From positions 1-64,000 of the IMG/VR virus record IMGVR_UViG_3300036715_001196: a DNA stretch of 64,000 nt. The stretch is one strand, 5' to 3'. The notes under the pieces were generated by a model that was given only the letters and a program-made list of their open reading frames with translations, was not told the DNA's origin and did no database searches. A program made the position numbers and the translations under genes. Origin of the DNA: a virus (Duplodnaviria > Heunggongvirae > Uroviricota > Caudoviricetes). Below, piece after piece: positions 1-19,501 of this stretch (positions are counted from its first letter, which is position 1; each line of letters starts with the position of its first letter).

Positions 1-139
1 CAATACCATACACAGATTTTGTATTATTCTCCTGCAAGATTAGATAGCTGCGGTATGCCGTATCTACATGCGCTAGAAAACGAATTAGAAAATTTAAAAA
101 AAGAATTAAACTCGCTATCATGAGTTATGGATTAGATAA

Positions 140-1021
140 ATGAAAACTCCCTTAAAAACACTGAAACCAAATTTATTAGGAAAGGATTATGTTATTGGTG
201 ATCTTCACGGATCATATTCTGTCTTTGAAAATCTACTTGCTAATTTAAATTTTAATCCATTAGTTGATAGGCTCATATCTGTCGGTGATTTAATTGACCG
301 CGGCGCACAAAGTCTTAAATGCTTATCTTTGATACGCGAACCATGGTTTCATTCAGTATTTGCAAATCATGAACAACTAATGCTTGAAAAATTCAATGAT
401 CAATTTTACGGCCAATTCTGGTATCAGAACGGCGGATTTTGGGGTGCTGAAGCATACAATAGTTATAAAAACCCAAGCTTAATAATGGACGAAGCAAGTG
501 CTGAACTTATCGATTTATTGCCATTAGTTGAACAGTTGCCATGGCTTATAACTGTTGACACAAAGAGTGGCAATAAATTTCATATAATACATGCTGAGCT
601 GCCTGAGACTATTGAAATAATTACTGATAAAATGCTATCAGACCCTAACGAGGTACAACGGATAGGAACAATAATTCAAGGCGACGGTGAATCATTTCTT
701 TGGAATAGGTCTTTATACGGTGACTTTTATTCTGCTGATATTTCTAATAAAGATAAAGTAATTAGAACTATGGGGTATAAGAATTATGATGTTTTCAATA
801 AAGACTTGTCACATGTAATATCAGGTCACACAATTCTTAGAACTCCTATGACTATACTTGGACAGACATGTATTGATACAGGTGCATATAAATCTGGACA
901 TAGTACTAATGGGCTTACGTGTGTGGAATTAGATTCTTGGAAATTTTACAAAGCAACTAATGATACATTTGAAGAGGTAAATCCGATTACTATTACAGAA
1001 AAGGATATGTCTGGTGACTGA
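140..1021 (+). CDS. Ser/Thr protein phosphatase, PPP-family metallophosphoesterase (lambda PPase/ApaH-like)
   Basis: Metallophosphoesterase signature motifs in order: GDLHG (GDxHG), GDLIDRG (GDxxDRG), ANHE (GNHE). 293-aa ORF with ATG start. Confidence 0.8.
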   Translation: MKTPLKTLKPNLLGKDYVIGDLHGSYSVFENLLANLNFNPLVDRLISVGDLIDRGAQSLKCLSLIREPWFHSVFANHEQLMLEKFNDQFYGQFWYQNGGFWGAEAYNSYKNPSLIMDEASAELIDLLPLVEQLPWLITVDTKSGNKFHIIHAELPETIEIITDKMLSDPNEVQRIGTIIQGDGESFLWNRSLYGDFYSADISNKDKVIRTMGYKNYDVFNKDLSHVISGHTILRTPMTILGQTCIDTGAYKSGHSTNGLTCVELDSWKFYKATNDTFEEVNPITITEKDMSGD

Positions 1022-1227
1022 TGTCTGATAGAAAACGAGAAGAAGAAGAAATATTACTAGAATATGCTTACACAGGAAAGTATTCTGGTAATATATTCCA
1101 CCCAATATATTATAGAGGTTGTTGGTTCTTGGTTGGACGCCTACCTACCACTCTTAATACTATAAAACGTTATTGTAACCTTTCGGACGAAGATTATTTA
1201 TTTCTTAAATTAAGATATGGCGAATGA
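1021..1227 (+). CDS. small hypothetical protein, LKLRYG-family (C-term DEDYLFLKLRYGE)
   Basis: 68-aa ORF overlapping the upstream stop (ATGA). C-terminus shared with the next ORF and with small ORFs near 14.7 kb. Confidence 0.4.
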   Translation: MSDRKREEEEILLEYAYTGKYSGNIFHPIYYRGCWFLVGRLPTTLNTIKRYCNLSDEDYLFLKLRYGE

Positions 1228-1405
1228 GATAATATTATATGAATACAAATTTATTGGGATTTCGGGGTACGTCTATTATCCTAAATATCGAAACGGTAAA
1301 TGGTGTCCTGATATACACAACGAATGCACCTTAGTCGAGATTGCCTCCATTTTTGACATACCTGAAGACGACTTAATAATTCTAAAATTAAGGTATGGCG
1401 GTTGA
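1217..1405 (+). CDS. small hypothetical protein, LKLRYG-family paralog (C-term EDDLIILKLRYGG)
   Basis: 62-aa ORF overlapping its paralog. Conserved Cys/aromatic positions (RGCWFL vs NGKWCP) and identical C-terminal motif. Confidence 0.4.
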   Translation: MANEIILYEYKFIGISGYVYYPKYRNGKWCPDIHNECTLVEIASIFDIPEDDLIILKLRYGG

Positions 1406-1539
1406 CATTTATGATTGGAAAAATCTTATATGGCGTAATACAAACATTGCAAAATTAGAAGCCTTGTATAATGCGGGATATACTGTTATACTTGTCCTCG
1501 ACGGTGTTAAATATAACTGGAAATCATATAGGATAAGAT

Positions 1540-2496
1540 ATGGATTATTGGACAGATGTTAAGAAAATTGATAGTTCTGAAGGTAATGTGAGTAAATTTA
1601 TATTTACCTCAGCTGATAGCGTAGCAGAGGCAGTTTTATATAAGCACCCTACTTACCAGGATAGAACAGTAGTTTGTTTCTCAGTAATGTCGGGTTGCCC
1701 GATGGGTTGCCGTTTCTGTGGCACCGGCGAATTTTTTATTAGAAACTTAACAGTAGGCGAAATCGTTGAACAGGTAACATATGTATTATCTACTACTGGA
1801 TTGAAGGCACACGAATTTAATAAGATACAGTTAATGTCAATGAGTATGGGCGAGCCTTTATTAAATAAGAACGGATTGACAGATGCATTTCGTACATTGT
1901 ATGCATTATACCCGAATGCTGCATTGCTTATTAGTACATCAGCACCAGCAGTTGATTATAGTTGGGTACGTGATTTATCAATAGAAATTCCTACTATAGG
2001 TTTACAATTTTCTGTACACGAAAGCACTGACGAAGCACGTAACAAACTAATTCCGTTCAAAGCAAAATTGACATTGGCACAAATTGCTGAAGAAGGTGAA
2101 AAGTGGTATAGAGCAACCGGGCGACAGCCATTCTTTAATTATTGCGCACACGATGCAAATGATAAACAAGAAGATGCAGATCGTTTAGAAACATTATTTA
2201 ATCCAACAATTTGGCAATCTACTGTTTCTGTTATCTGTGAACAAGATGAATCTGTTGCAGCGGCTAACGAGCGTCAGCGCAGGTTAGCAACAGATTTTAT
2301 GGAATTACTTATGTTACGTGGATATTCCACTCGTTGCTTTGATCCTGCTGGGCAAGATGACATAGGTGGTGGATGTGGGCAACTTTTTCATGTGCAGATT
2401 TGGGTTAAGTCCCATCCCGAAAATACAAGAAGTTCATGCGGAGCTGGATTACCAAAAGTTCATATGCCCCGTGTTATTGAAATTGTGAAAGTATAA
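1540..2496 (+). CDS. radical SAM methyltransferase, RlmN/Cfr-like (rRNA/tRNA adenine C2/C8 methyltransferase family)
   Basis: VVCFSVMSGCPMGCRFCGTG matches the RlmN/Cfr Cys + CxxxCxFCxTG radical SAM cluster. MSMGEPLLN matches the RlmN MGMGEPL motif. C-terminal GGGCGQL matches the second catalytic Cys (CGQL). 318 aa, lacks the usual N-terminal extension. Confidence 0.7.
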   Translation: MDYWTDVKKIDSSEGNVSKFIFTSADSVAEAVLYKHPTYQDRTVVCFSVMSGCPMGCRFCGTGEFFIRNLTVGEIVEQVTYVLSTTGLKAHEFNKIQLMSMSMGEPLLNKNGLTDAFRTLYALYPNAALLISTSAPAVDYSWVRDLSIEIPTIGLQFSVHESTDEARNKLIPFKAKLTLAQIAEEGEKWYRATGRQPFFNYCAHDANDKQEDADRLETLFNPTIWQSTVSVICEQDESVAAANERQRRLATDFMELLMLRGYSTRCFDPAGQDDIGGGCGQLFHVQIWVKSHPENTRSSCGAGLPKVHMPRVIEIVKV

Positions 2497-2497
2497 T

Positions 2498-2713
2498 ATG
2501 GCAGTAGATATGCTAGATCGTGAAATTAATATTAGTGACTTCGTAATCATGTACAATAACATATACGAAGTGACTAAGATTGATGGACAAAATGCACAGA
2601 TAATTCTTGTTAGTAAATCAAAGACAACGAAAAGTGCATGGCATCGTGGTAGCAAATTATGCTTGTTACATAAAGAAGATATTTTAATGTGGAAACTGAA
2701 GGGTGGATTTTAA
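2498..2713 (+). CDS. hypothetical protein
   Basis: 71-aa ORF, ATG 1 nt after the upstream stop, same strand in an operon-like context. Confidence 0.35.
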   Translation: MAVDMLDREINISDFVIMYNNIYEVTKIDGQNAQIILVSKSKTTKSAWHRGSKLCLLHKEDILMWKLKGGF

Positions 2714-3071
2714 CCTGGGTAAAGAATTAAACCCATTTCTGGCAGGCTTTCAACTTGCTGGTCAACGTAGAGCTAATGGATTATTATATCCGTTTGGCCA
2801 TGGCGGGAATCCGATATCCGAATGACCAAAAGTAGTTAAATTGTATCACAACACTTATACACTCGAATACGTTACTAAAGGTAATAACGGGTATGAATGC
2901 GGGGCATATGTATGAACTCAATACCTTTATTAGATAAAATTTATGACGGCGAGTCAATCTGCGATATATCACGAGATGTACACGAAGCCTTCATTGCGGA
3001 TTTTACACCAAATATTAAAAATATTCCTGTAAACGAAGATTATATTCAGAAGGGCAGTTTTCGTGTACTAA

Positions 3072-3305
3072 TTGTTTGGAATTCAGATGAATAAAAATTT
3101 AAAAAGATTAAAAGACCAGTCAATAGAAACACACACATATTCTGATATTGACGGGGATAATAACAAAGGCCTACGGCTGAACGAAGAAAAATTTGCTGAA
3201 CTCGTGATACAAGAATGTATGAAACTTAATAACATGTATGTAGGGAGCAGAGTCGGCGAAATAGATCTTAACTTAATATATAAAGAGCATTTTGGGCTAA
3301 AATGA
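3072..3305 (+). CDS. hypothetical protein
   Basis: 77-aa ORF. Stop overlaps the next start (ATGA). Confidence 0.35.
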   Translation: MFGIQMNKNLKRLKDQSIETHTYSDIDGDNNKGLRLNEEKFAELVIQECMKLNNMYVGSRVGEIDLNLIYKEHFGLK

Positions 3306-3568
3306 AAGATGGTTTAATCACACTTAGGCTATACCTAGAAGCATATGTAGCAGATCTCGTATTTTGGTTTAGTGAGTATAGAAAAGCCTTAGTTGATCCG
3401 ATGTATCTTCGCGAACGTTTATATAATAATGAATTGTCCCTTATACTAGTTCATATTCTATTAGGGTTTCTTCTTCCTTTTCTTTTACCATTTGCTATTT
3501 TGTTTACAGCATATGGAAGGTACAAGGATGACCAAGATAAAATTTTAAGACGATTACGTGGAACATGA
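3302..3568 (+). CDS. small membrane protein, tandem paralog 1 of 3
   Basis: 88 aa. Hydrophobic segment LILVHILLGFLLPFLLPFAILF. Related N-term (MKDGLITLRLYLEAY) and C-term (ILRRLRGT) to the next two ORFs. ATGA coupling. Confidence 0.45.
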   Translation: MKDGLITLRLYLEAYVADLVFWFSEYRKALVDPMYLRERLYNNELSLILVHILLGFLLPFLLPFAILFTAYGRYKDDQDKILRRLRGT

Positions 3569-3804
3569 GATACCTTAGATATTTTAAACAATCAGTACTA
3601 TTATACCTTTCAAATTTAGTTGGCATAATAACCCTTAAAGGATTATACATTGATCTTCCATTAGTTATTTTCTATATTCTTGTAATTGTGCCGTTTATTA
3701 TTCCAGTGTTTTTAGTATGCTCTATTATTATTGTTCCTATTAATACTTACTATTTTTATAGACACGAACAGGAAGAAATTATAAAAAGGCTACAAGGATT
3801 ATGA
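3565..3804 (+). CDS. small membrane protein, tandem paralog 2 of 3
   Basis: 79 aa with TM segment. C-term IIKRLQGL parallels the neighbours. Translational coupling. Confidence 0.45.
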   Translation: MRYLRYFKQSVLLYLSNLVGIITLKGLYIDLPLVIFYILVIVPFIIPVFLVCSIIIVPINTYYFYRHEQEEIIKRLQGL

Positions 3805-4112
3805 AAGATTATTTAGTAACATGTAAATTATACATTAAGCAAATACCACACTCAACACTTCTAATTATAAAATTAATTGATTCTCTTATATCAATTAAAG
3901 ATAGAGAAAGCACTTCGTCTTGGTTGTTAATATCACTACCAATGGCATCATTGCTCTTTTTATGCTCGCCTGCTATAATTGCCATTACAGCATACAAGTA
4001 TATGCAACGAGACAAAATTAGGATTTGGAATAAATTAAAAACTGGTAGTGATGCAATCTCAGATGTAACATCAAACGGAGAAGAGAATGAACCAAAATTT
4101 AAAAAAGTATAA
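3801..4112 (+). CDS. small membrane protein, tandem paralog 3 of 3
   Basis: 103 aa. N-term MKDYLVTCKLYIKQ similar to paralog 1. TM segment LLISLPMASLLFLCSPAIIAI. Confidence 0.45.
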   Translation: MKDYLVTCKLYIKQIPHSTLLIIKLIDSLISIKDRESTSSWLLISLPMASLLFLCSPAIIAITAYKYMQRDKIRIWNKLKTGSDAISDVTSNGEENEPKFKKV

Positions 4113-4275
4113 ATTTAAGATACAACTGTGGTTTCATAGAAATCGCTTGCAAATCACATGGTTCTTAATCGGCTGGTTAGTAACATCTGGTATCAGTGCA
4201 TTGTTTGCAGGTCAATATCTTAGTGCATTAATTTCTTTCTTGTTTGCAGGTCTTAATTACGTATTGTCTGAATAA
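4087..4275 (+). CDS. small membrane protein
   Basis: 62-aa ORF with two hydrophobic segments. Overlaps the upstream gene end. Confidence 0.35.
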   Translation: MNQNLKKYKFKIQLWFHRNRLQITWFLIGWLVTSGISALFAGQYLSALISFLFAGLNYVLSE

Positions 4276-4282
4276 TAGTCAT

Positions 4283-4702
4283 ATGCCTAATCCATGGGAT
4301 CACTTACCAAATGCTAAACACATTGATGCTATAATTGCATCAGTTAAAGCACACCTAAAAGAATGGGGTGCGGCAAGGGGTGCGGCAAGGGGTGCGGAGC
4401 GGGGTGAGGTGTGGGATGCGGTAAGGGATGCGGCGTGGGATGCGGCGTGGGATGCGGCATGGGATGCGGCGAGGGATGCGGCGAGGGATGGGGCGTGGGA
4501 AGCGGCCTGTAGTGCGGCATATTATGCGGCAAGGGATGCAATCATTGCCCTTATTGCATATGATGATTGCGCATATATGCTCGACTCAGATCCAAGCGAG
4601 TTAGAAATAATTGCTAAATTCGGTGACGAGAGAGCAATACTTTTATTAGCTGCATGTAAGGTATTTGCAGATATTAAGATACATAAACCAGTTATTGCTT
4701 GA
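4283..4702 (+). CDS. HEAT-like repeat protein, hypervariable family A member 1
   Basis: Internal ATG ([28 protein letters not shown]). Centre made of AARGAA/AAWDAA/AARDAA hexapeptide repeats. C-term [47 protein letters not shown]. Stop TGA lies inside the -35 of the next promoter. Confidence 0.75.
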   Translation: MPNPWDHLPNAKHIDAIIASVKAHLKEWGAARGAARGAERGEVWDAVRDAAWDAAWDAAWDAARDAARDGAWEAACSAAYYAARDAIIALIAYDDCAYMLDSDPSELEIIAKFGDERAILLLAACKVFADIKIHKPVIA

Positions 4703-4724
4703 CAAATGATTCCAGCTATCATAT

Positions 4725-4727
<3 letters not shown>
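4699..4727 (+). promoter_or_regulatory. sigma70-type promoter of the family-A cassette (TTGACA-N17-TATTAT), followed by an (ATA)n microsatellite
   Basis: TTGACAAATGATTCCAGCTATCATATTAT. The -35 overlaps the stop of the upstream family-A gene. The -10 is followed by about 19 ATA/TAA repeats before the conserved UTR and RBS. Confidence 0.6.
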
Positions 4728-4787
<60 letters not shown>

Positions 4788-4810
4788 AACAAACACCGTA
4801 GGAGTACAAA

Positions 4811-5200
4811 ATGTCTAATCCATGGGATCACTTACCAAATGCGAAACACATTGATGCATTAATTGCATCAGTTAAAGCACACCCAGAAGAATGGGTTGCG
4901 GCAAGGTATGCGGAGCGGGGTGAGGCGTGGGATGAGGCGTGGGGTGCGGCGTGGGATGCGGCGTGGAATGCGGCGGGGGATGCAGCATATTATGCGGCAA
5001 GGTGTGCGGCGTGGGGTGCAGCCTGGGATGCGGCGTGGGATGCAATCATTGCCCTTATCGCGTATGATGATTGCGCATATATGCTCGACTCAGATCCAAG
5101 CGAGTTAGAAATAATTGCTAAATTCGGTAATGAGAGAGCAATACTTTTATTAGCTGCATGTAATGCATTTTCGATCATTAAGGAAAAAGAACATGTCTAA
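4811..5200 (+). CDS. HEAT-like repeat protein, family A member 2
   Basis: [34 protein letters not shown] repeats, conserved C-term. RBS AGGAGTACAAAATG. Confidence 0.8.
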   Translation: MSNPWDHLPNAKHIDALIASVKAHPEEWVAARYAERGEAWDEAWGAAWDAAWNAAGDAAYYAARCAAWGAAWDAAWDAIIALIAYDDCAYMLDSDPSELEIIAKFGNERAILLLAACNAFSIIKEKEHV

Positions 5201-5723
5201 TAATATAATCACAATTAAAGATTTTATGGCCTGTGTTAATTATTGTATTACTGATAGTTCAGAATACTGTTGGTCATGTTATGGCAATAATGCAAGGTAT
5301 ATGGATTATTGGAACGAAAAACACGGTGACGATAGTGTATCAATGTCTATAATTTTTGATACAAATACTCAAATTGTATATCAGATGGAAGTATGGGATA
5401 GTTCAAGTCATCGAGAATATCGTTGGCTTAATCCTGATTATAAAAAGGTATTTCTAGATGAAGCAAATTCTCGTAACATTAAGCCTAACGAAACAATTGA
5501 TGGGCGAAAGTTTATTGACTTAGATGTTAGGGTTGATATGTTAGAAAAGGCTTCTGCAATCTTTGCCGGTAGAGAATATGATACTCGTGTATCTGTTGAT
5601 ATAGAATTAGACGACAACACTATGTTAGCATTAATGACAATGGCACACGAAGCTGATATGACATTAAATAATTTTGTTACTTACATCATCGAACAGGAAA
5701 TAATAAAACAACCAACGAAATAG
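5193..5723 (+). CDS. hypothetical protein
   Basis: ATG with RBS AAGGAAAAAGAAC. Overlaps the family-A stop. 176 aa. Confidence 0.5.
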   Translation: MSNNIITIKDFMACVNYCITDSSEYCWSCYGNNARYMDYWNEKHGDDSVSMSIIFDTNTQIVYQMEVWDSSSHREYRWLNPDYKKVFLDEANSRNIKPNETIDGRKFIDLDVRVDMLEKASAIFAGREYDTRVSVDIELDDNTMLALMTMAHEADMTLNNFVTYIIEQEIIKQPTK

Positions 5724-5810
5724 CAAACGAACTACCATATAATATTATCAAAGGCGCTATAATAACGCTGTGGTACAAAATTTTTATTAACATTACTAAA
5801 AGGAAATACA

Positions 5811-6173
5811 ATGTCTTCACATCAAACGATTAATACCAAGGTTGCTGAACAACTTGCAGCAATTGCACCGCAGGTAGCGGAAAATATTATTAACCATTTG
5901 GTTACTAAAGAATTGACCCGCCGTTCGGACGCGATTATTCAGGCAATAGCTACGTCTGAAAAACTTTCCAAAGATCTAGCCAAATTGAAACCTGATAATG
6001 TATTGTACAATGAAGATGGCACAGTAGCATCTTCGACATACACTAAGGCAAAGTTGGACGAAAAATCTAAGATTACAACCCAGATCAAAAAAATTGAAGA
6101 CGCAATCGAAAAAGCACTAGCGAACAACGACTATAGCTTGTTGTTCAACTTAGCAAAACCGCAAGAAGCGTAA
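5811..6173 (+). CDS. hypothetical protein (coiled-coil rich)
   Basis: 120-aa ORF preceded by AAAGGAAATACAATG. Confidence 0.5.
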   Translation: MSSHQTINTKVAEQLAAIAPQVAENIINHLVTKELTRRSDAIIQAIATSEKLSKDLAKLKPDNVLYNEDGTVASSTYTKAKLDEKSKITTQIKKIEDAIEKALANNDYSLLFNLAKPQEA

Positions 6174-6174
6174 T

Positions 6175-6426
6175 ATGAACTTAACTTACATCCGTGCTGA
6201 AGTTGATCGGCGCGTAGCAGAACAAATGCCTGTTGTCTTGTTCGAACGAAGCATTTTACTTCATAAAAAAGTCGGCTCAACAAATGGGTGTAAGTGTTCG
6301 TATTGTTGTTTAAAACGTGCATCAACGTCTGCGATCGCAAATGCAGGTTATCACAGACGTGATTCTGTAAAAAGAACATATATGTTTCTGTTGTCTCAAG
6401 AAATGAAAAAGTATCAAGGGGAATAA
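6175..6426 (+). CDS. hypothetical protein
   Basis: 83-aa ORF immediately after the upstream stop. Confidence 0.4.
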   Translation: MNLTYIRAEVDRRVAEQMPVVLFERSILLHKKVGSTNGCKCSYCCLKRASTSAIANAGYHRRDSVKRTYMFLLSQEMKKYQGE

Positions 6427-6498
6427 AATGTTTATGCTATTATTGATTATTTGTGCAATAATCGTTTGCTATAATATTTCCGAAGGCAGAGGTCCAAA

Positions 6499-6753
6499 AT
6501 GATTTTAGAACTATTTACAATCATTGTTGTTGCTGTAGTGGCATACTACATAATATCACAAATTGTTATTCCGACGATTAGTGATACACCGATTCTTCCG
6601 ATGTTTCGGAAGAATGATGTAAACAAGAAAATTAGTCGCTTAAAGCAGGAATTAGAAAAGGTAGCAAATCAAGGGCAGTTAGATGCTTTAAACAATGAAG
6701 TTCAACGCCGAAAGGCAGAATTGGAGAAAAGAAATGCTAAATCTAAACCTTAA
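6499..6753 (+). CDS. small membrane protein with coiled-coil tail
   Basis: N-terminal TM helix ILELFTIIVVAVVAYYIISQIVI. Stop overlaps the downstream SPFH gene start. Confidence 0.45.
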   Translation: MILELFTIIVVAVVAYYIISQIVIPTISDTPILPMFRKNDVNKKISRLKQELEKVANQGQLDALNNEVQRRKAELEKRNAKSKP

Positions 6754-7960
6754 GAAAATAGGTTTACTCGTACTTAGTGCTATTACGTTTTTGATTGCAC
6801 TGATTATTGTTCCACAACTATTCACTAATGTGGATGCGAAACAGATTGTTGTATTGCAAACAATTACAGGTAAGTTGGAATGTTTAACTGCACCTGGGTG
6901 GACTTGGCAAGGTATAGGTAAATTAACACATTACCCACGACGAGATCAGTTTTCGTTTAGTTCTGCTATAGACCAAGGTAAGGCAGTCGACGAGTCAATC
7001 CAAACACGATTCAACGATGGCGGCCATGCGAATATCAGCGGTACTATTAACTGGGCAATGCCATTGTCGTGCGAAAAGATTATTTCATTACATAAAGATT
7101 TTGGCAGCGTAAATGCTATTGAGCAGCAATTGATGCGTACAGCCGTTCAGAAAGTTATTTATAATGTTGGACCTACAATGAGCTCTACTGAAAGTTCAGC
7201 TGAAAAACGGCCCGATATTCCAAAATACATCGATGACCAATTAGTGAACGGTACATACTTAACAAAGACTGTTCAACACACTGAAAAAGACGCAATTACT
7301 GGCCAAGACAAAATTGTAAATGTTGTCACTATTGCAATGGATGAATCCGGTAAAGCTGCTCGTGAAAGTAAGAGCCAATTAACTGAATACGGGTTAGTGT
7401 TGCAACCTGTTGCAATTAATACAATCAAATACAGTGATGATGTTGAAAAACAAATCACTGAACGACAAAAGGCTACCACAGCGGTGCAAATCAGCAAGGC
7501 TAATGCAATTAAGGCAGAGCAAGAAAAATTGACCACAATTAGTCAAGGTGAAGCTAATGCAGCAAAAGCAAAGTGGGAACAGGAAGTTGAAAATGCTAAA
7601 ACTATTGCAACTGCACAGGCTAAAGTTACAATTGCTGATGCAAGTGTGAAAGAAGCAGAAGCATTTAAGAAAGCTGAGATCTTACGTGGTGAAGGTGAAG
7701 CAACTCGCAAGAAATTAGTTATGGAAGCTGATGGCGCCCTTTCTCCTAAACTGGATGCATTAGTAAAGATTAACGAAATGTATGCTAATGCTATTAAAAA
7801 CGCAGCACCTGGTGCTTGGTCTCCGAGTATAGTAATGGGTGGATCTGGTAGTAATGCAGGTCAGGGTGCAAACGCTTTAATCGAAATGATGACCGCTAAA
7901 ACTGCAAAAGATCTTGGTATTGATATGTCAGTAACACGCGGGGCAACTACTAAGAAGTAA
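6734..7960 (+). CDS. SPFH/band-7 (prohibitin/flotillin/HflK-like) membrane protein
   Basis: N-terminal TM helix, then a band-7-like core. C-terminal A/E/K-rich coiled coil (AKAEQEKL...AEILRGEGEATRKKL) typical of HflK/C and YqiK-type SPFH proteins. RBS GGAGAAAAGAAATG. Confidence 0.65.
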   Translation: MLNLNLKKIGLLVLSAITFLIALIIVPQLFTNVDAKQIVVLQTITGKLECLTAPGWTWQGIGKLTHYPRRDQFSFSSAIDQGKAVDESIQTRFNDGGHANISGTINWAMPLSCEKIISLHKDFGSVNAIEQQLMRTAVQKVIYNVGPTMSSTESSAEKRPDIPKYIDDQLVNGTYLTKTVQHTEKDAITGQDKIVNVVTIAMDESGKAARESKSQLTEYGLVLQPVAINTIKYSDDVEKQITERQKATTAVQISKANAIKAEQEKLTTISQGEANAAKAKWEQEVENAKTIATAQAKVTIADASVKEAEAFKKAEILRGEGEATRKKLVMEADGALSPKLDALVKINEMYANAIKNAAPGAWSPSIVMGGSGSNAGQGANALIEMMTAKTAKDLGIDMSVTRGATTKK

Positions 7961-7986
7961 GTAGTAATATCGCTTGCAATTAAGAT

Positions 7987-8020
7987 CCCTACATGTTATA
8001 TTATGCATGTAGGGTTTTTA
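7987..8020 (+). terminator. rho-independent terminator
   Basis: CCCTACATG...CATGTAGGG hairpin followed by TTTTTATT. Confidence 0.6.
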
Positions 8021-8043
8021 TTATCTAAACGAAAGGAGATAAA

Positions 8044-8682
8044 GTGGACGTATTAACAGGGTTTTTAGTTGGTTTTGCTGCGACACAATGGTTCTGGGCG
8101 GTATTAGTTATAGTAATACTCTTGTTGACTACAAGTGCTATCAATGAAGAAGGTTTTTGGGCAGCTACAATGTCATTTATGCTCTTAGCATTAGCATTTA
8201 GTAAATGGCCTGCTATTTGCGCATTTCTAAGCTCGCCAGTCATAGCAGTTACAGCAATCATTGCATATTTTACAATTGGTGCAATGTGGGGTGTATTCAA
8301 ATGGAAATTGTATGTCGATATGGTGTATAATATCTGTGTATCTAATCGTGAAAATTTTCTACGGTACAGAAAATTGCCAAATGATTATTTACAAAATAAT
8401 CCTAAGGCGGATGTAATCGGTTATTACATTGAATATATGCGTAATAATATACCCGGGAAATATGTACCACATGATATAAACACTATCGAAGAATTAAATA
8501 ATTCATTAGTTCCGATTGCATCAAACAATTCGTATTCGATTATTATGTGGATAACTTACTGGCCAATTTCTGCAATATGGTTTGTTGTAAGTGATTTGTT
8601 TACTGAAATTGGAAAAGCAATTTATCGCAATCTTGCACAAATATTTCAATCAGTATCTGATAGCAAATTTAAAAAGTTTTAA
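8044..8682 (+). CDS. integral membrane protein (multi-TM)
   Basis: GTG start after AAAGGAGATAAA. Several hydrophobic helices. Confidence 0.5.
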   Translation: MDVLTGFLVGFAATQWFWAVLVIVILLLTTSAINEEGFWAATMSFMLLALAFSKWPAICAFLSSPVIAVTAIIAYFTIGAMWGVFKWKLYVDMVYNICVSNRENFLRYRKLPNDYLQNNPKADVIGYYIEYMRNNIPGKYVPHDINTIEELNNSLVPIASNNSYSIIMWITYWPISAIWFVVSDLFTEIGKAIYRNLAQIFQSVSDSKFKKF

Positions 8683-8766
8683 TTGAAGTTTTAGTAAGGC
8701 GTCACTTGCAAAAAATCCCTTATATGCTATAATGTGTATAAGGGATTTTTAATTTACAGAGAATAT

Positions 8767-9105
8767 ATGAATAAAAAGATCATAGCAGCACAAATTACTA
8801 CAATATCTCCTTATGATTTTGATAAATCTTTAAAAGATATTAGAACATATATTAACGGGTTAATTGCAGAACACGGAGAAGATGCAGAGATAGATTACGA
8901 TTCTAGTTTCCATCATCCGTATGATCCAAATCCGTCGCCGCAGTATTCATTGGTTATTCGCCGTCAAGAAACTGATGAAGAATATGCGGAAAGAATAAAT
9001 CGTGAAGATCAGAGTAAGCTAAACATCGAAGAGCGAGATAGAAAAGAATTTGCACGTTTGAAAAGTTGTTCGGAGATAAGAAATGACTACCGACACCTTA
9101 AATAA
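8767..9105 (+). CDS. hypothetical protein
   Basis: Preferred ATG (MNKKIIAAQ) downstream of a TTGCAA-N17-TATAAT promoter at 8700-8732. Confidence 0.45.
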   Translation: MNKKIIAAQITTISPYDFDKSLKDIRTYINGLIAEHGEDAEIDYDSSFHHPYDPNPSPQYSLVIRRQETDEEYAERINREDQSKLNIEERDRKEFARLKSCSEIRNDYRHLK

Positions 9106-9153
9106 ATTTAGAATTTTATCAGTTGCTGAAAGTGGTGGAAATGTCGATAGTAT

Positions 9154-9402
9154 GTGTGCGTTGAGCATACAGCATATTACAACCAATCAGCAAGACACTT
9201 AACACAAGTTAAACGAATACCGAATCAGGTTATTACGACACGTATAAGCATAGACATAGCGAGGTCTATGACTGTTACAAGTAACAACTGTAGAATCTTA
9301 GTGCCTAAGATAGACATCGACGGGCTTATACAGTATTTGCAAGAAGTGAAGGTCTTTTTATCAGAAAACGATTTATGCGAAAAATTAGTAGGAAAGGCAT
9401 AA
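9154..9402 (+). CDS. hypothetical protein
   Basis: 82-aa ORF. Weak signals. Confidence 0.3.
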   Translation: MCVEHTAYYNQSARHLTQVKRIPNQVITTRISIDIARSMTVTSNNCRILVPKIDIDGLIQYLQEVKVFLSENDLCEKLVGKA

Positions 9403-9501
9403 GTTATGAACAGCAGCTTCTTTAATTATACAAATTATGTAATGATAAAGATACAGAATTTCTAAATTCTATAATTTTAAAAGCTTAATAAGGAAAGAAA
9501 A

Positions 9502-9969
9502 ATGGAAATTATTAAAGGTAATTTAATTGATCTTGCACAACAAGGCCGATTTAATGTAATCATACATGGTGCGAATTGTTTTAATACCATGTCAAGCGGA
9601 ATTGCGAAAGAAATCAGAGCTCGCTATCCAAAAGCATACGAAGTTGATTGTGAAACAGTGGCCGGCGATCGTGCCAAATTAGGCACATATACAACTATGT
9701 TTGGTTTACGATTTAATATTATAAATGCATATACACAATACGGCTACGGTCGCAAGACTGAAGATGATGACTTATTCGAATACGAAGCATTTGCATTGAT
9801 TCTAGAAAGATTACAAAAGCAATATAAGGGCGTTGGTCGGTTTGGTTTCCCTTTGATAGGTTGCGGATTGGCAGGCGGGGATAAAACTCGCATCGTCGGA
9901 ATGATCGAAGATTTTGCTAAGGCAGTTGAAGCAGATGGCAGTACTGTAACAATAGTAGAATTCGGTTAA
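9502..9969 (+). CDS. macro-domain protein (ADP-ribose binding/processing, Appr-1''-p family)
   Basis: VIIHGANCFNTMSSGIAKEI matches the macro-domain VNAAN...GGGVA signature. GCGLAGGD glycine-rich loop. RBS AAGGAAAGAAAAATG. Confidence 0.75.
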   Translation: MEIIKGNLIDLAQQGRFNVIIHGANCFNTMSSGIAKEIRARYPKAYEVDCETVAGDRAKLGTYTTMFGLRFNIINAYTQYGYGRKTEDDDLFEYEAFALILERLQKQYKGVGRFGFPLIGCGLAGGDKTRIVGMIEDFAKAVEADGSTVTIVEFG

Positions 9970-9973
9970 CTGA

Positions 9974-10002
9974 TTGACACAATCTAACACAAGCAATATA
10001 AT
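9974..10002 (+). promoter_or_regulatory. sigma70-type promoter (TTGACA-N17-TATAAT)
   Basis: TTGACACAATCTAACACAAGCAATATAAT upstream of the AAA+ gene. Confidence 0.55.
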
Positions 10003-10031
10003 ACATACACAACAATATAGGGAGAGTAAAT

Positions 10032-11111
10032 ATGTCGTTTTATTTAAAAGATAGTGATCAATTATGGCCAACTGAAGCCGGTGTTTATGATGTACGTTCT
10101 TCATTGCCAGTCGGTACCTATACTGTAGGTAATCATCCTTTAAAGGGGTGGTATCTGAAAACAATTACTGACTTTGATATCTCAGGTAAAATTTACGGGA
10201 AAACTACGCGGCAGGCCGAGCGTATCTTAAATACATTCAACGTTCGCCCAGAAGCGACTGGTGTATTATTAAGCGGCGAAAAAGGCAGTGGTAAAACAAT
10301 GCTTGCTAAACTAGTATCACAATTGGCTGCAAAGCAAGGCATTCCTACGTTAGTTATTAATACACCGTTTACAGGTGACAGCTTCAATAACTTTATTCAA
10401 AGTATCGACGAAGCCTGCATTATTGTGTTTGATGAATTTGAAAAAGTGTTTGACAGTGAACAACAAGAAGAAATTCTTACATTGCTCGATGGTGTGTATC
10501 CAACAAAGAAATTATTTATCTTGACAGTAAACGATACATATCGGGTTAACAGTCATTTAAAAAATCGACCTGGTCGTATTTTTTATTCTGTCGAATATCA
10601 CGGGGTAGATGCTGATTTTATCAGAGAATATTGTAATGATAATCTCAACGATAAATCGCATATTACCCAACTAGTAAGGGTGGCAATGTTGTTTGAAACA
10701 TTCAACTTCGATATGCTAAAAGCATTAATTGAAGAAATGAATCGGTACAACGAATCTCCAATCGAAGCATTAGATATGTTAAATGCTAAACCGTTATCTG
10801 AAAGTCATTTAAAACACCGTGTTGAAGTAACATATAACGGTGAAAAGATTAATCCAGAAAACATTTGGCCGAACGTGATCCGTGGTAATCCTATGGTGGG
10901 TTCTGAGTTATCTATTGGATTTAATCCGAATCCAACCGACGATAGTGAATCTGTATCATTCTATATGGATCGTAAGTTTTTGAAGAAAGTAGACCCAGAA
11001 CAAGGCACATTTACATATGTCGTAAATGAAGGTAGCACAAATTCAGCCGTGATTGTGTTTACACGCGAAAAAAATTCACGAAGTGACGAAGATTGGATTA
11101 AAGCGTTCTAA
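10032..11111 (+). CDS. AAA+ ATPase
   Basis: Walker A GEKGSGKT, Walker B IIVFDEFEK, sensor NRPGRI. RBS GGGAGAGTAAATATG. Confidence 0.7.
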   Translation: MSFYLKDSDQLWPTEAGVYDVRSSLPVGTYTVGNHPLKGWYLKTITDFDISGKIYGKTTRQAERILNTFNVRPEATGVLLSGEKGSGKTMLAKLVSQLAAKQGIPTLVINTPFTGDSFNNFIQSIDEACIIVFDEFEKVFDSEQQEEILTLLDGVYPTKKLFILTVNDTYRVNSHLKNRPGRIFYSVEYHGVDADFIREYCNDNLNDKSHITQLVRVAMLFETFNFDMLKALIEEMNRYNESPIEALDMLNAKPLSESHLKHRVEVTYNGEKINPENIWPNVIRGNPMVGSELSIGFNPNPTDDSESVSFYMDRKFLKKVDPEQGTFTYVVNEGSTNSAVIVFTREKNSRSDEDWIKAF

Positions 11112-11170
11112 TTAGGTTGACTTATAGGGCAATAATGCCCTATAATTACGGTATGCATAAGGAAAACGTT

Positions 11171-11389
11171 ATGGAAAAATATGAACAGAAATACCCGTCC
11201 GCTTATTATCTATACAGATTTAAAGATGGCGAGAAATTTCATTATGTTACCCATAACGGAATTCGGACACGGCATGCCAGTATGGATAAAGCGTTAGGCG
11301 TCTGTGAGCGTATTAATAAAGAAGCAGGTTTGCCCGACATTAATGTATATAAAAGTAATAAATTTACGCTAAGGAGAACTGATGTTTAA
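11171..11389 (+). CDS. hypothetical protein
   Basis: ATG after AAGGAAAACGTT. Upstream TTGACT-N17-TATAAT promoter. Confidence 0.4.
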   Translation: MEKYEQKYPSAYYLYRFKDGEKFHYVTHNGIRTRHASMDKALGVCERINKEAGLPDINVYKSNKFTLRRTDV

Positions 11390-12623
11390 ACGACTTATCA
11401 TGCTATTTGCACTATTATTATCAATTAGTGCTTTTGCATTTGATTTACCAAAACCGTCTGAAGTGAAGGCAGTATATGCTTCGGGAGATTATGCTCGAGC
11501 AGAAATGTTGTTAAAGCAGGTTATGGTTGAACGACCAACCGCACCAGTACATTATCAATTAGGTCAAGTTTATTCAAAACAAGGTAAACATAAAGATGCT
11601 CTAAACGAGTTTAGGCAGGCACAGGCACTAGATCCTAGCTTAAAATTTGCGTCAAGTGCAGCAGCATTTACACGAGCACTAGCTGATGAGCAGACTATTG
11701 TCGCACCACAGCCAATAACAACTTCACAGCCGCAACACTCGCAGCGACAAGCTAATTCTCCAAATTCTGGCGAAGCCGGACAATTCTTTGTAATTCTATT
11801 TTTGTTACTTATTGCAGGTGCAGCTATTTATGGTATCTACTATCTTGTAACTACTATTAGGCATAAGAAAGCCATAGCACAGCAAGCTGATGACGAGCTT
11901 TCTAAGAAAAATTCTAATTTATTAGATTTATCAAAGCAACTCGACGATGCCTTACTCATTGCAAAAACTGCAAACTATAGCGAAGCAGATAAATTACAAA
12001 TTACACAACGTATTACGAGTCTCCAAGGCCAAGTTCGTAGTATATTAGCTGACCTAAAGGACGGTGAAGATATTTCGGCATATCGTATCTATACAGTTGA
12101 AGCGAATGTGCGTGAAGTTATAGAGCAGGCCACAAACGGTTTACCGGTGCCTGTTAGAGAAGACTCTATTTATAGTCCCAAAGCCCGCCGGAAAAATTCG
12201 AGTAAGAACAGAATGCTACCACCTGCTCCACCGCCCCCACCAGCTCCATGTCAGGTACGTGAAGGTGATAGAGTTGTTCGTCCGGACGCTGCACCAGCAT
12301 ACCAGTCAACACCTGCTCCTGCTTCTGCTCCTGTTATTGTAAATAATACTAGTTCTGGAAGTTCAGATTTATTAACAGGTATGATGATTGGTGAAATGAT
12401 GCACTCACATCGTGACAATGAACGTACAGTATATGTCGAACGTGAAGTATATTTGCCGCCAACAAGGACATCGCGCATTGATACAAACGATGATGACGAT
12501 ACATACACTGCACCAAGTCGGTCGTCAACACTTGATACAGACAATGACCGTAGTGATAGTTATACAACAGATTCATCAAGTATCGATTCGAGCTCTACTA
12601 GTGGCAACGACGATAGCTATTAA
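11382..12623 (+). CDS. membrane protein with N-terminal TPR-like region, central TM helix and Pro/Ser/Asp-rich tail
   Basis: Signal/TM N-terminus. TPR-like HYQLGQVYSKQGKHKDALNEFRQAQALDP. TM FFVILFLLLIAGAAIYGIYYLV. PPAPPPPPAP and S/D/T-rich C-terminus. Confidence 0.5.
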   Translation: MFKRLIMLFALLLSISAFAFDLPKPSEVKAVYASGDYARAEMLLKQVMVERPTAPVHYQLGQVYSKQGKHKDALNEFRQAQALDPSLKFASSAAAFTRALADEQTIVAPQPITTSQPQHSQRQANSPNSGEAGQFFVILFLLLIAGAAIYGIYYLVTTIRHKKAIAQQADDELSKKNSNLLDLSKQLDDALLIAKTANYSEADKLQITQRITSLQGQVRSILADLKDGEDISAYRIYTVEANVREVIEQATNGLPVPVREDSIYSPKARRKNSSKNRMLPPAPPPPPAPCQVREGDRVVRPDAAPAYQSTPAPASAPVIVNNTSSGSSDLLTGMMIGEMMHSHRDNERTVYVEREVYLPPTRTSRIDTNDDDDTYTAPSRSSTLDTDNDRSDSYTTDSSSIDSSSTSGNDDSY

Positions 12624-12654
12624 TTCACAACTCAACTCAACTGAAGGGAATATC

Positions 12655-13308
12655 ATGTCTTTATTACAAAAAATTATGCACACACTTAAAGGTTCTGCAA
12701 ACGACTTAGTCGATGCTCACCAAGACCTAGGTGCAAATGCACGCCAAAGTGTTCGTGATCTAGACGAACAACTTCAAGCAGCAGATAAGGCGTTAATTGA
12801 TGTACGTGCTGAAGCAGAAGTATTGAAGGGTAAAAAGCAAAAAGCAGAAACTGAAGTTGCAAAATGGTTACAGGCTGCATCAAATGCAGCAGGTAAAGAT
12901 GATAACTTAGCTCGCGAATGTTTGGCTAAGAAAGCATCAGCAAAAGCAAACCTAGATGCTCTTACACAATCATTGGATAAATTCCAACCTACTGTGACCG
13001 CATTAGAAACACGCATTACACAATTACGTTCACAGCGTGACGGTTTGTCTAATCAAGCTGACTTGATCGGTGTTCGTAGCGAAGTAGCAGATGTTGAATT
13101 ACGTACAGCTGAAATTCTAGGCAGTACAAACTTAGAAACAAGTTTAGTTGCACAAGAAGATGCACTTGCACGCAAAGAAGCCAGGGCGCATGCATCTAGT
13201 GCGATTTTGCAAGAACGTACCGGTCAAGCTTTGGAAAGCCGTGTTGCTGCATTAACTGCAGGTCCAAGTATTGAAGACGAACTTGCTGCCTTAAAGGCGT
13301 CTAAATAA
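12655..13308 (+). CDS. PspA/IM30 (phage shock protein A / Vipp1) family protein
   Basis: 217-aa all-coiled-coil protein. ATG at 12655 with RBS GAAGGGAATATC. LARECLAKK resembles the PspA LAREAL..K segment. Overall heptad architecture matches PspA. Confidence 0.5.
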   Translation: MSLLQKIMHTLKGSANDLVDAHQDLGANARQSVRDLDEQLQAADKALIDVRAEAEVLKGKKQKAETEVAKWLQAASNAAGKDDNLARECLAKKASAKANLDALTQSLDKFQPTVTALETRITQLRSQRDGLSNQADLIGVRSEVADVELRTAEILGSTNLETSLVAQEDALARKEARAHASSAILQERTGQALESRVAALTAGPSIEDELAALKASK

Positions 13309-13340
13309 TAAATATTGGCTTTGCAGTATTTTAATACCAG

Positions 13341-13369
13341 TTGACAGATAATTACTGTCATTTTATAAT
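13341..13369 (+). promoter_or_regulatory. sigma70-type promoter (TTGACA-N17-TATAAT)
   Basis: TTGACAGATAATTACTGTCATTTTATAAT immediately upstream of a hairpin and ORF 13400. Confidence 0.5.
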
Positions 13370-13399
13370 AAGGCATATTAAACATATGCCTTATTTTAT

Positions 13400-14041
13400 T
13401 TGCGAGTAATAATGAAAATACAAGTTAGAAAATGTCGCTTTACAGGAAAATTGTTTGAGGAGAAAAACCTTAACAAATATAAAAAGCACCTAGAACAGCT
13501 TAGGAATAAAATGGCCTACGAAAGACATCTTGCTCGTACAAAACGCGAATTTAAAGCATGGTTAGAAAAAGAAAAAGAACAAATTATACATGTCTCTGAA
13601 ATTGCGCCATGGTTCTTAAAAAACCAAAGATATATAATGGATGCATTTAATAGCGGTTGCAGGTCAGTCAACAGCTATTACGACAAAGACAAAATATTTA
13701 TGGAAGGTGATAAATTTACTGAATTAGACATAGAAGTGAGATATATTGACAAAGTCTCAAATACACATGTTTGTCCAGATACCGGTGTTACTAATTGGCA
13801 ATGGACCTTGGATTTACCTAGGGGATATGCAGGATTTTCTGGAAGAGTTACAGGATCTATAGTATGTGATAAAAGGCAGAGACATTATCTAAGTACTACA
13901 GATCTACTTAAATTAGTAGGAATAAAAACAGGTAGCGGTAGTGGTGGTGATAGTTCTTGGGGGTATAATGTTAGTATATTCTTAGATGATTGGGCAGGTC
14001 TAAAACACCAAGCTATTGTAAATAAATTAAAAGGGGAATAA
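13400..14041 (+). CDS. hypothetical protein
   Basis: 213-aa ORF. Possible alternative start at 13412. Confidence 0.45.
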   Translation: MRVIMKIQVRKCRFTGKLFEEKNLNKYKKHLEQLRNKMAYERHLARTKREFKAWLEKEKEQIIHVSEIAPWFLKNQRYIMDAFNSGCRSVNSYYDKDKIFMEGDKFTELDIEVRYIDKVSNTHVCPDTGVTNWQWTLDLPRGYAGFSGRVTGSIVCDKRQRHYLSTTDLLKLVGIKTGSGSGGDSSWGYNVSIFLDDWAGLKHQAIVNKLKGE

Positions 14042-14042
14042 A

Positions 14043-14390
14043 ATGACTACTAAATTTGAGTTTGGCTATATCGGCTGGTGCAAAGAAGGCAGCCATGATA
14101 AAATTTGGGGTTATTTTTATCGACCAAGCCCGGAGTATGAAGCAGCGAAAAACACACCGGTTTGGTCTATACCAGTGCGTAATGTATGCGTGTTCTGGGG
14201 AAGGCGCGGCAAAGCCTTACAATTTAAAGCTAATACAACAGGATACGACTTATATAGATTAGAAGAATCGAAGTCCAAAAAAGGTTATACAGAAATTAAT
14301 GAAAAAATCCTTACTGAAATTTGGACCACATTTGCAAGTGAGGCTGAGTTAAAACTCTCGTTTGAAGTTTTGGCAGGGAATGTAAAGTAG
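14043..14390 (+). CDS. WGR-domain protein
   Basis: HDKIWGYFY ... VCVFWGRRGKALQFK matches the W-G-R signature of the WGR domain (PARP/MolR-associated). ATG 1 nt after the upstream stop. Confidence 0.5.
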   Translation: MTTKFEFGYIGWCKEGSHDKIWGYFYRPSPEYEAAKNTPVWSIPVRNVCVFWGRRGKALQFKANTTGYDLYRLEESKSKKGYTEINEKILTEIWTTFASEAELKLSFEVLAGNVK

Positions 14391-14732
14391 TTAAGCCATC
14401 AATGAATAATACACAAACCTATGTAAAAATGAATATAGCCATCAAACGTTTTGACAACTGGTTAAAAATAAACAGAGACATTAATGCATGACATAAAGAA
14501 AATCAACTAAGTTTTCAAATTATGATGCAGGCAATGGACAATTTATTGTATTTCTTAACGTAATTTATACAAAGCCCGGCTCAATAAAGGTATGATAGTT
14601 GAAGTATGTACCTGGGCTGCAGACAATAACATTAACTTCTATCATATGTGGTCATGGAAAGATATAGTTATAGTGTTATTTTTTATAATAGCGAAGATGT
14701 ACTGCTATTTAAATTAAGATTTAACGGATACT

Positions 14733-14933
14733 ATGAAATCACTAATTTTTGAATATAACAGTGCAAATAATCGGAACAACTATTATGATATCAGACATTT
14801 AATGATTCAATGGTGTAAAGAAAATGATATGAGTGTCGATACTAGAGGTACTATCTTTGGTACTATATTTGTATTTAATTTAGATCACGAAGGCTTATTA
14901 TTTAAATTAAATTTTAGTGAATACATATCATGA
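14733..14933 (+). CDS. small hypothetical protein, LKLRYG-family relative (C-term EGLLFKLNFSEYIS)
   Basis: 66-aa ORF. A degenerate paralog fragment (…EDVLLFKLRFNGY…) lies just upstream at about 14654-14752. Confidence 0.3.
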   Translation: MKSLIFEYNSANNRNNYYDIRHLMIQWCKENDMSVDTRGTIFGTIFVFNLDHEGLLFKLNFSEYIS

Positions 14934-15044
14934 CATACTGCTATCAACTTACTTAAACTGTTTGTTTGCCTGACAGACAGGAATTGCGAATTTTCTTTGA
15001 TCTTCCAGTGTTACCAACATTTTTTTCTTCTTCAAATAAGTTGC

Positions 15045-15581: not shown

Positions 15582-15676
15582 GCATCATTCCCCAATCTAT
15601 ATTTAACTATGCTTTAGCATTTACACTTATGCTCGATGATATAACAACTAGGAGATTATTAGGTCTGTGCATATAA

Positions 15677-17227: not shown

Positions 17228-17374
17228 GTAATATTTATCTTTATTGCCGACGCCGGGTGTTAAAACAGATTATACCACTTGACGCAATAACAGAACTAGT
17301 ACATAATAGACACATACAAGATTTAAACACAAACTAAGTTTTTTCACAGTAGTACTTAAACAGGAGAGTTATAA

Positions 17375-18478: not shown

Positions 18479-18510
18479 GTTTCCGTCCAATGAATTTTCT
18501 TTAATTTAAA

Positions 18511-19500: not shown

Positions 19501-19501
19501 G

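Follow-up and report, generated by a model that had tools for sequence, protein, structure and literature searches.

What does a phage methylate with an enzyme built like RlmN and Cfr, the radical S-adenosylmethionine (SAM) enzymes that act on A2503 of 23S rRNA? The question is raised by a gene at positions 1540-2496 of the virus record IMGVR_UViG_3300036715_001196 (Caudoviricetes), of which positions 1 to 64,000, referred to below as the window, were analysed. The original prediction, drawn from the letters of the window, took the product for a member of the RlmN/Cfr family modifying 23S rRNA A2503 or tRNA A37. Our results show that the window protein is neither RlmN nor Cfr and belongs to a separate, undescribed and mostly phage-borne clade. 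Judging from alignments, its catalytic machinery is intact and the elements with which RlmN and Cfr hold RNA are gone, and its family is repeatedly wired into NAD+ salvage operons.

A methyl synthase clade apart from RlmN and Cfr

The open reading frame (ORF) is a real and intact gene of 318 codons, and its ATG start is consistent in position with the N-termini of 28 homologues. The following features of the gene are used below:

1540..2496, plus strand: coding sequence, RlmN/Cfr-fold radical-SAM methyl synthase without N-terminal domain, of the 'RVQM / F[DN]PAGQD[DT]' clade (ORF, profile hidden Markov model (HMM) and PDB matches, AlphaFold2 model, clade placement)
1530..1533, plus strand: AGGA, Shine-Dalgarno-like, 6 nucleotides 5' of the ATG (read from the sequence)
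1555..1641, plus strand: first three predicted strands (residues 6-11, 17-23 and 28-34), the beta' extension, at which the protein begins (DSSP of the AlphaFold2 model)
1675..1677, plus strand: C46 in RTVVCFS, aligned to 3rf9 and equivalent to RlmN C118 and Cfr C105, which resolves the covalent intermediate
1696..1719, plus strand: C53-x3-C57-x2-C60 in GCPMGCRFCGTG, the [4Fe-4S]/SAM cluster motif (PF04055; invariant in a 29-sequence alignment)
1846..1860, plus strand: MGEPL, residues 103-107, with the clade-specific Q97-L-M99-S-M just before it (sequence, alignments)
1918..1929, plus strand: A127-A128-L129-L130 in place of the RNA-gripping R206-R207-V-T209 of E. coli RlmN and R184-R185, S187 of Cfr (Cfr cryo-EM contacts mapped on the alignment; same register in the HMMER alignment)
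2338..2361, plus strand: signature loop F267-D-P-A-G-Q-D-D274, replacing RKTR(G) of RlmN and RSQF(G) of Cfr beside the target base (alignment)
2365..2385, plus strand: GGGCGQL with C279, equivalent to RlmN C355 and Cfr C338, the methyl-carrying cysteine

Membership of the radical SAM superfamily is supported by PF04055, which matches residues 48-165 with 31.4 bits against a cut-off of 29.5. Among sequences in the PDB, phmmer finds RlmN (6fz6, E 2.7e-21) and Cfr (9p0p, E 2.2e-19), and TIGR00048 matches with an E-value of 2.9e-30. An AlphaFold2 model built on 29 homologues (mean predicted local distance difference test score, pLDDT, 83.7; predicted template modelling score, pTM, 0.85) has strands and helices that are predicted to alternate as in a partial TIM barrel. 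With this model Foldseek retrieves RlmN 3rfa (E 1.1e-17, TM-score 0.69) and Cfr 9p0p (6.7e-13) from the PDB, and the next folds, viperin and RimO, drop to about 1e-6 (best 1.5e-6). The RlmN/Cfr-type fold, together with the alignment of C46 and C279 to RlmN C118 and C355, characterizes a class-A radical-SAM methyl synthase. C279 is conserved in all 101 family members compared and C46 in all 29 aligned sequences, the residue being Cys in 99 of the 101 (one Arg, one gap); the cluster motif, too, is kept by nearly all of the 101. Every motif named by the original prediction is thus present, from C46, the CxxxCxxC cluster and MGEPL to the CGQL cysteine, neither catalytic cysteine has been lost, and its view of a virus-borne enzyme of the RlmN/Cfr structural and mechanistic type is borne out.

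By analogy with RlmN, Cys279 would be methylated by SAM, and a second SAM would be cleaved at the [4Fe-4S] cluster of C53, C57 and C60 into a 5'-deoxyadenosyl radical. This radical would take a hydrogen from the S-methyl group, the resulting methylene radical would add to an sp2 carbon of the adenine ring, C2 or C8, and the covalent adduct would be resolved by Cys46. An auxiliary Fe-S cluster formed by C202, C233 and C266 was considered and rejected: C202 and C233 are present throughout the close family, many of the more distant members have only C233 of the three, and beyond the close family Val or Ile stands at position 266. Membership in a known defence system was likewise rejected, PADLOC giving just a marginal viperin match (E 0.003).

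The kinship with RlmN and Cfr does not extend to membership of either family. The protein falls far below the curated cut-offs for RlmN (TIGR00048, 105.4 against 290; NF008396, 68.5 against 633) and for Cfr (NF000424, TIGR04432 and PRK14453, 85.4 against 530, 80.6 against 550 and 81.1 against 468, respectively). A HMMER scan of 1.84 billion cluster representatives returned 73 representatives at E<=1e-30, and the matches form a continuum of short proteins (about 270-320 residues) down to canonical RlmN at about 95 bits. The representatives were aligned with RlmN of E. coli and S. aureus, plasmid RlmN, Cfr, Cfr(B), Cfr(C) and Cfr(D). In the neighbour-joining tree the window protein lies in a clade of 36 short sequences which is split from every RlmN and Cfr in 100 of 100 bootstraps. 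Cfr, for its part, is monophyletic in 100 of 100 and nested among RlmN sequences having the N-terminal domain. The tree therefore places the protein in a different subfamily, and the assignment to RlmN or Cfr has to be given up. The clade is also told apart by residues:

positions 42/44/97/99 (window numbering): clade R/V/Q/M; RlmN R/T/N/V; Cfr W/S/S/S
position 233: clade C (then EQDES); RlmN N; Cfr N
loop before the C-terminal Cys: clade F[DN]PAGQD[DT]; RlmN RKTRG; Cfr RSQFG
C-terminal Cys motif: clade IGGGCGQL; RlmN IDAACGQL; Cfr IDAACGQL

RlmN (E. coli YfgB; TIGR00048; PDB 3RFA, 5HR7), a dual radical-SAM methyl synthase that makes 2-methyladenosine (m2A) at 23S A2503 and tRNA A37, is the best sequence and fold match of the window protein. 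They have in common the partial TIM-barrel core, the beta' extension, CxxxCxxC, MGEP, the CGQL loop, both mechanistic cysteines and an Arg at RlmN position 114. Yet identity is only about 25%, the window protein has no HhH2 domain, R206/R207 are replaced by A/A, T116/N172/V174/T209 by V/Q/M/L, RKTR by FDPAGQ with a one-residue insertion, and IDAACGQL by IGGGCGQL. The clade is in addition more acidic (family median isoelectric point 5.3), and its context is that of phage early regions and NAD salvage operons. With Cfr, Cfr(B), Cfr(C) and Cfr(D) (NF000424, TIGR04432; PDB 9P0P), the 23S m8A2503 methylases that give resistance to phenicols, lincosamides, oxazolidinones, pleuromutilins and streptogramin A (PhLOPSA), it shares the fold, the two-cysteine methyl-synthase chemistry and a presence on mobile elements. 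Cfr, in contrast, keeps HhH2 and the Arg184/Arg185 clamp, and its W101, S103, S151, S153, Q329 and F330 all differ in the window protein.

The clade is large and horizontally mobile: big phages and prophages carry it, as do Saccharibacteria and gut Firmicutes. Several hundred homologues of about 320 residues are 65-91% identical to the window protein, and the identical protein is encoded on metagenome contigs of JGI and Logan, up to 17 kb long, whose gene order matches that of the window. We counted 191 loci in IMG/VR, 80 of which were kept, the longest contig among these reaching 435 kb. Metagenomes gave at least 492 loci, and the species genomes of GTDB gave 63, from 63 bacterial species. 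Thirteen deposited phages have a homologue at 48-61% identity, among them Stenotrophomonas phages ANB28 and BUCTxx99, Xanthomonas phage JGB6, Salmonella phage Arash, Aeromonas phage Ahp1 and several Vibrio phages. In the literature searched, viral NAD+/ADP-ribose surveys included, we found no description of the clade or of phage RlmN/Cfr-like enzymes. Pipelines label its genes '23S rRNA (adenine2503-C2)-methyltransferase', as in JGI names and in phage ANB28, and a resistance screen could flag them as Cfr-like; both labels, RlmN-type and Cfr-like, are probably wrong for this clade.

Elements that hold RNA

The cryo-EM work on Cfr gives a point of comparison for each contact with the ribosome. 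Binding of rRNA depends crucially on the HhH2 domain, the anchor of H91/H92; R184 and R185 clasp the strand of H90, and four serines (S103, S151, S153 and S187) bind the phosphate of U2504, the neighbour of the target on its 3' side; in both Cfr and RlmN the beta' extension joins the N-terminal domain to the core (PMC13001441). Residues within 5 Å of A2503 have been listed for Cfr, where W101R and Q329T abolish or shift C8 methylation (10.1101/2025.09.18.677109).

The original prediction was right that the N-terminal accessory domain is missing. Pfam detects no RlmN_N domain (PF21016) in the window protein at E<=1 and does detect it in the canonical control P0262; in agreement, the alignment begins only at RlmN 83-88, residue 12 of the query aligning to residue 88 of E. 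coli RlmN. The Arg-Arg clamp is replaced by A127/A128, its first position being Arg in all 14 RlmN-type and all 4 Cfr sequences compared. The U2504-phosphate pocket S103/S151/S153/S187 corresponds to V44/Q97/M99/L130. Thus, by this mapping, three RNA-holding elements and the basic loop beside the target base are gone from a protein whose catalytic machinery is intact.

The loss of the 3'-phosphate pocket in the alignment suggests a target adenosine that has no nucleotide on its 3' side, and the substrate would then be an adenosine outside structured RNA. Methylation of 23S A2503 or of tRNA A37, as first proposed, finds no support in a separate clade whose RNA-holding residues are replaced. An argument from charge was tried and set aside as weak: the family is acidic, with a net charge of -9 beside its median isoelectric point of 5.3, yet the S. 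aureus RlmN and Cfr cores also have -5.

NAD+ salvage operons and the choice of substrate

Neighbours were counted up to four genes away in loci dereplicated at 90% identity, which number 101 (57 viral and 44 genomic). There is no universal operon partner, the commonest neighbour family occurring in only 16 of the 101 loci. Six of the seven commonest families are NAD-related, and the seventh is an unannotated family of 68 residues. The six are:

NrtR-type Nudix protein with winged helix: 16/101 loci
NAMPT: 13/101 loci
PncA: 8/101 loci
NadE: 8/101 loci
NMNAT: 6/101 loci
PncB: 4/101 loci

At least one NAD salvage gene is present in 27 of the 101 loci (14/57 viral, 13/44 genomic). An independent sample of further metagenome loci gave an NAD link in 9 of 25, which makes 36 of 126 overall. 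Several of these arrangements are compact. With X standing for the homologue, the isolate Ornithinimicrobium murale DSM 22056 carries a tight operon PncA-X-NrtR with 4-nucleotide overlaps (L117), and another locus (L129) reads NAMPT-X-NadE-radical-SAM-like protein-NMNAT with overlapping codons, its fourth gene reaching 25.4 bits against PF04055, below the cut-off. Phage contigs show NrtR-NAMPT-X (L031, L054), and a further locus reads X-PncA-NAMPT-NMNAT (L111). In metagenome-assembled genomes of Saccharibacteria, a block PncB-PncA / X / NrtR-NadE lies between metG and tatD; flanked by such housekeeping genes, the cluster is chromosomal there. The NAD-linked members do not form a branch of their own but are scattered over the family tree, including sister groups of the window's subclade. 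They are 45-66% identical to the window protein and have the same active-site signature, the F, P, G and D273 of the signature loop each being shared by all 27 of them and by at least 73 of the 74 remaining members.

Where a viral flank contains NAMPT, it is at most two genes away in 10 of 11 cases. For comparison, NARP2 is reported in about 1.1% of phage genomes, and NadV in 22-33% of medium and jumbo phages genome-wide (PMC9503650). As NadV is that common, the telling figure is adjacency and not presence. Likeness to the phage systems NARP2 (Nampt and Nmnat), NARP1-AP (with a Macro-domain phosphatase) and NARP3 is one of genomic company only: homologues in phage contigs have NAMPT and a Nudix/NrtR-like gene at a distance of one or two genes, whereas both NAMPT and NMNAT are absent from the window. 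The papers on NARP1, NARP2 and NARP3 describe no radical-SAM component, nor does the survey of viral NAD and ADP-ribose genes from 2022, and our literature search found no radical SAM protein in NARP or Thoeris contexts, nor in NrtR regulons. Domain fusions agree with the NAD link: one member of the clade is fused to a C-terminal Nudix domain.

A fusion of another kind, which is in the same direction, was seen in the representative scan. P0215 (759 residues) belongs to a different, neighbouring short RlmN-like clade and is fused to HD and HD_assoc domains (dGTPase/SAMHD1-like), a hint that free nucleotides may be the substrates of other RlmN-like proteins, too, in which the N-terminal domain is missing.

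NAD+ metabolism is now recognised as having a central place in phage defence and in counter-defence. Since members of the family recur within NAD+ salvage operons, the likeliest substrate in our view is an adenine nucleotide such as NAD+, ADP-ribose or one of their close precursors. We tentatively favour, while giving it somewhat less than an even chance, that the window protein performs the same methyl-synthase chemistry on an adenine nucleotide of this type, instead of 23S A2503 or tRNA A37, and serves in an NAD+-centred conflict between phage and host. In this phage it would be an early accessory gene, whose most plausible role lies in NAD+/ADP-ribose conflict with host defences. The recurrent insertion in NAD+ salvage operons points to an unrecognised NAD+ step or modification. 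For the clade as a whole, it is possible but doubtful that it consists of nucleotide-cofactor methylases that modify NAD+, ADP-ribose or a precursor at C2 or C8 of the adenine or, conceivably, at the pyridine ring. Were this true, a modified NAD pool or signal could serve phages, prophages and parasitic Saccharibacteria in their struggle for host NAD+; possible outcomes would be an NAD+ that immune NADases can neither cleave nor cyclise, or poisoned TIR/SIR2 products. It would also add a layer to the NAD+ arms race and be the first case of an RlmN/Cfr-type enzyme whose substrate is not RNA.

Several observations weigh against an NAD+/ADP-ribose substrate. By tblastn the 64-kb window holds no NAD salvage gene, and such genes are missing within 10 kb of about 70% of the family loci; part of the phage NAD signal could reflect shared accessory-gene islands. 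To our knowledge, every characterised enzyme of the RlmN/Cfr fold acts on RNA, and the ping-pong mechanism of RlmN is slow and awkward for the conversion of an abundant metabolite. Two RNA-contact arginines, R42 (equivalent to RlmN R114) and R195 (equivalent to Cfr R249), are retained, and the residue mapping comes from sequence alignment and a model, not from the structure of a complex. The homologue of phage ANB28 is located inside a tRNA gene cluster. In the window's own subclade, moreover, the recurrent neighbours are of RNA-repair type (RtcB, metallophosphoesterase, Pnk-like kinase/phosphatase), and these fit an RNA substrate at least as well.

An RNA target is therefore a live rival to the NAD+/ADP-ribose reading, and it may be conceived in two ways. 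The protein could be a streamlined RlmN, which makes m2A at 23S A2503 and/or at A37 of host or phage tRNAs and so tunes translation in infection. The top HMM and PDB matches are indeed RlmN, the catalytic apparatus with R42 is kept, tRNA genes lie within 10 kb in about 19 of 60 viral loci, the homologue of ANB28 is surrounded by tRNA genes, and A37 is present in both tRNA-like genes of the window. This linkage, about one third of viral loci, was not taken as specific, since it is in these early regions that large phages also keep their tRNA arrays; also, tRNAs with UCU and CAU anticodons normally carry N6-threonylcarbamoyladenosine (t6A37), not m2A37. With HhH2, R206/R207, the 3'-phosphate pocket and the RKTR loop all gone, a clade separate in every bootstrap and a score about one third of the family cut-off, we hold a streamlined RlmN to be rather unlikely, all the more as it leaves the PncA/NadE/NAMPT/NrtR operons in cellular genomes unexplained. 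Less likely again is methylation of a terminal or exposed RNA adenosine, such as tRNA 3'-A76 or the adenosine of an NAD cap, for RNA repair or protection against tRNA-targeting defences. The lost 3'-phosphate pocket would suit a free nucleotide and a 3'-terminal adenosine equally, and the closest relatives, 66-76% identical, have fitting neighbours: in L006 and L160 a metallophosphoesterase, the gene and then, a few genes downstream, RtcB, and in L161 a DSPc phosphatase and a Pnk-like (AAA_33) kinase upstream of the gene. Near the homologue of Salmonella phage Arash, RNA ligases and a phosphoesterase are annotated. Linkage to RtcB is limited to a single subclade (8 of 75 loci before dereplication) and the window has the phosphoesterase, RtcB not being found there; the Preiss-Handler operons in Saccharibacteria stay unexplained, and we know of no precedent for C-methylation of A76 or of a cap adenosine. 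RNA repair and NAD/ADP-ribose genes travel together in viruses (PMC9503650), so that this RNA-end substrate stays a serious rival.

A quite improbable alternative is C-methylation of adenine in phage DNA as an anti-restriction modification. It draws on bacterial prophage-like loci in which early genes adjoin the homologue, placing it in a replication/recombination module (RecT, RecE, exonuclease VIII, SbcC-like, DnaB), and on a DNA methyltransferase directly downstream in L149 and L122. But internal DNA nucleotides also have a 3' phosphate, for which the pocket is lost, the protein has no DNA-binding domain, our literature search found no C2- or C8-methyl-dA in phage DNA, and accessory genes of all kinds commonly reside in that early module. 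Finally, the original prediction had raised the case of a Cfr-like C8 methylase of A2503 that would render infected ribosomes PhLOPSA-resistant. Matches to the Cfr models (81-85 bits) and to the Cfr structure are significant, but the scores are far under the 468-550-bit cut-offs, Cfr forms its own clade among RlmN, away from the window protein, and the residues of C8 specificity are replaced (R42, V44, Q97 and M99 at the places of W101, S103, S151 and S153; FDPAGQ for RSQF, with Q329 and F330). This activity is hardly credible here, and Cfr-like antibiotic resistance is unlikely. Cultured phage-host pairs carry homologues (Arash, Ahp1, ANB28, BUCTxx99), and the question of the substrate is thus directly testable.

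The window and its neighbourhood

The window has 36% G+C and short, mostly plus-strand ORFs. Its hallmarks are a NinI-like phosphatase, homing-endonuclease-like proteins, a MoxR AAA ATPase with a von Willebrand factor A (VWA) partner, a Macro-domain protein and two tRNA-like genes; megablast of positions 1-20000 against 50,697 phage records gave no match. Three genes around the methyl synthase gene deserve mention:

140..1021, plus strand: NinI-like metallophosphoesterase, four genes upstream (phrog_246, E 6.6e-52; placement conserved in the closest relatives, L011, L013 and L160)
2498..2713, plus strand: ORF of 71 residues starting 2 nucleotides past the stop (homologues at +1, +2 or +5 in five dereplicated loci, the window included)
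9502..9969, plus strand: Macro-domain (ADP-ribose-handling) protein of 155 residues, about 7 kb downstream (PF01661 E 1.3e-5, above the cut-off; weak DarG-like PADLOC match)

Macro homologues occur in 7 of the 101 family loci and are directly adjacent in L070 and L071. Macro-domain phosphatases of ADP-ribose-1''-phosphate are known components of NAD+ counter-defence, and the Macro protein of the window may be comparable to the phage phosphatase Adpp, which rescues NAD+ reconstitution.

Neither Pfam nor PADLOC gives a match for the ORFs in 1021-1562 and 2498-2713. Immediately upstream of the methyl synthase gene, two small paralogues of 68 and 62 residues (1021-1227 and 1217-1405, plus strand) both end in ...LKLRYG, and their homologues are similarly placed in five or six related phage loci. 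The 55-residue ORF 1395-1562 (plus strand), which overlaps the start of the gene, looks like a remnant, as it matches only the C-terminal 43 residues of a 297-residue protein that is intact in L160.

Of the two tRNA-like genes, tRNA-Arg(UCU) at 35028-35102 is called by both ARAGORN and Rfam. The second, with a CAU anticodon at 35947-36034 (plus strand), was called by ARAGORN and stays below the gathering score of the Rfam tRNA model. It had been put forward as a tRNA having A37: A37 is there, whereas its identity as a tRNA is not secured, given a length of 88 nucleotides and a long variable arm, which is unusual for a Met or Ile2 tRNA. Elsewhere, two related jumbo-phage or T5-like contigs carrying the homologue have tmRNA-like genes beside large tRNA arrays (L008 4899-5242 and L047 12492-12867, tags ANDDTFEEVYGLAA and ANDDMFVVALAA, respectively).

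Further downstream of the gene, three successive small ORFs at 3302-4112 (plus strand; 88, 79 and 103 residues) have hydrophobic cores and similar basic tails (RLRG/RLQG) and look like a tandem family of small membrane proteins. They are followed by tandem paralogous ORFs of 152 and 129 residues (4244-4702 and 4811-5200, plus strand) with N- and C-terminal ends in common. Both have a core of 12-nucleotide repeats (11.8 and 12.7 copies, consensus GGGATGCGGCGA) encoding peptide repeats of W-D-A-A / A-A-R-G type, and an (ATA)x15.7 microsatellite (4729-4775) separates them.

Two paralogues of about 500 residues, at 15677-17227 (minus strand) and 22377-23864 (plus strand), match homing/HNH endonuclease PHROGs with E-values of 1e-103 to 1e-117; one of them has a weak Mom-like DNA-modification match, and at the place corresponding to the window's endonuclease-like paralogue L160 has a related DUF7487 protein of 526 residues. 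A MoxR-type AAA ATPase and a DUF2201 metallopeptidase/VWA protein are encoded at 17375-18478 and 23916-25097 (both plus strand), about 5 kb apart; MoxR ATPase and VWA protein form a known two-gene pairing. At 30732-31508 (plus strand) the phage encodes a D-alanyl-D-alanine carboxypeptidase (Peptidase_S11, E 2e-33).

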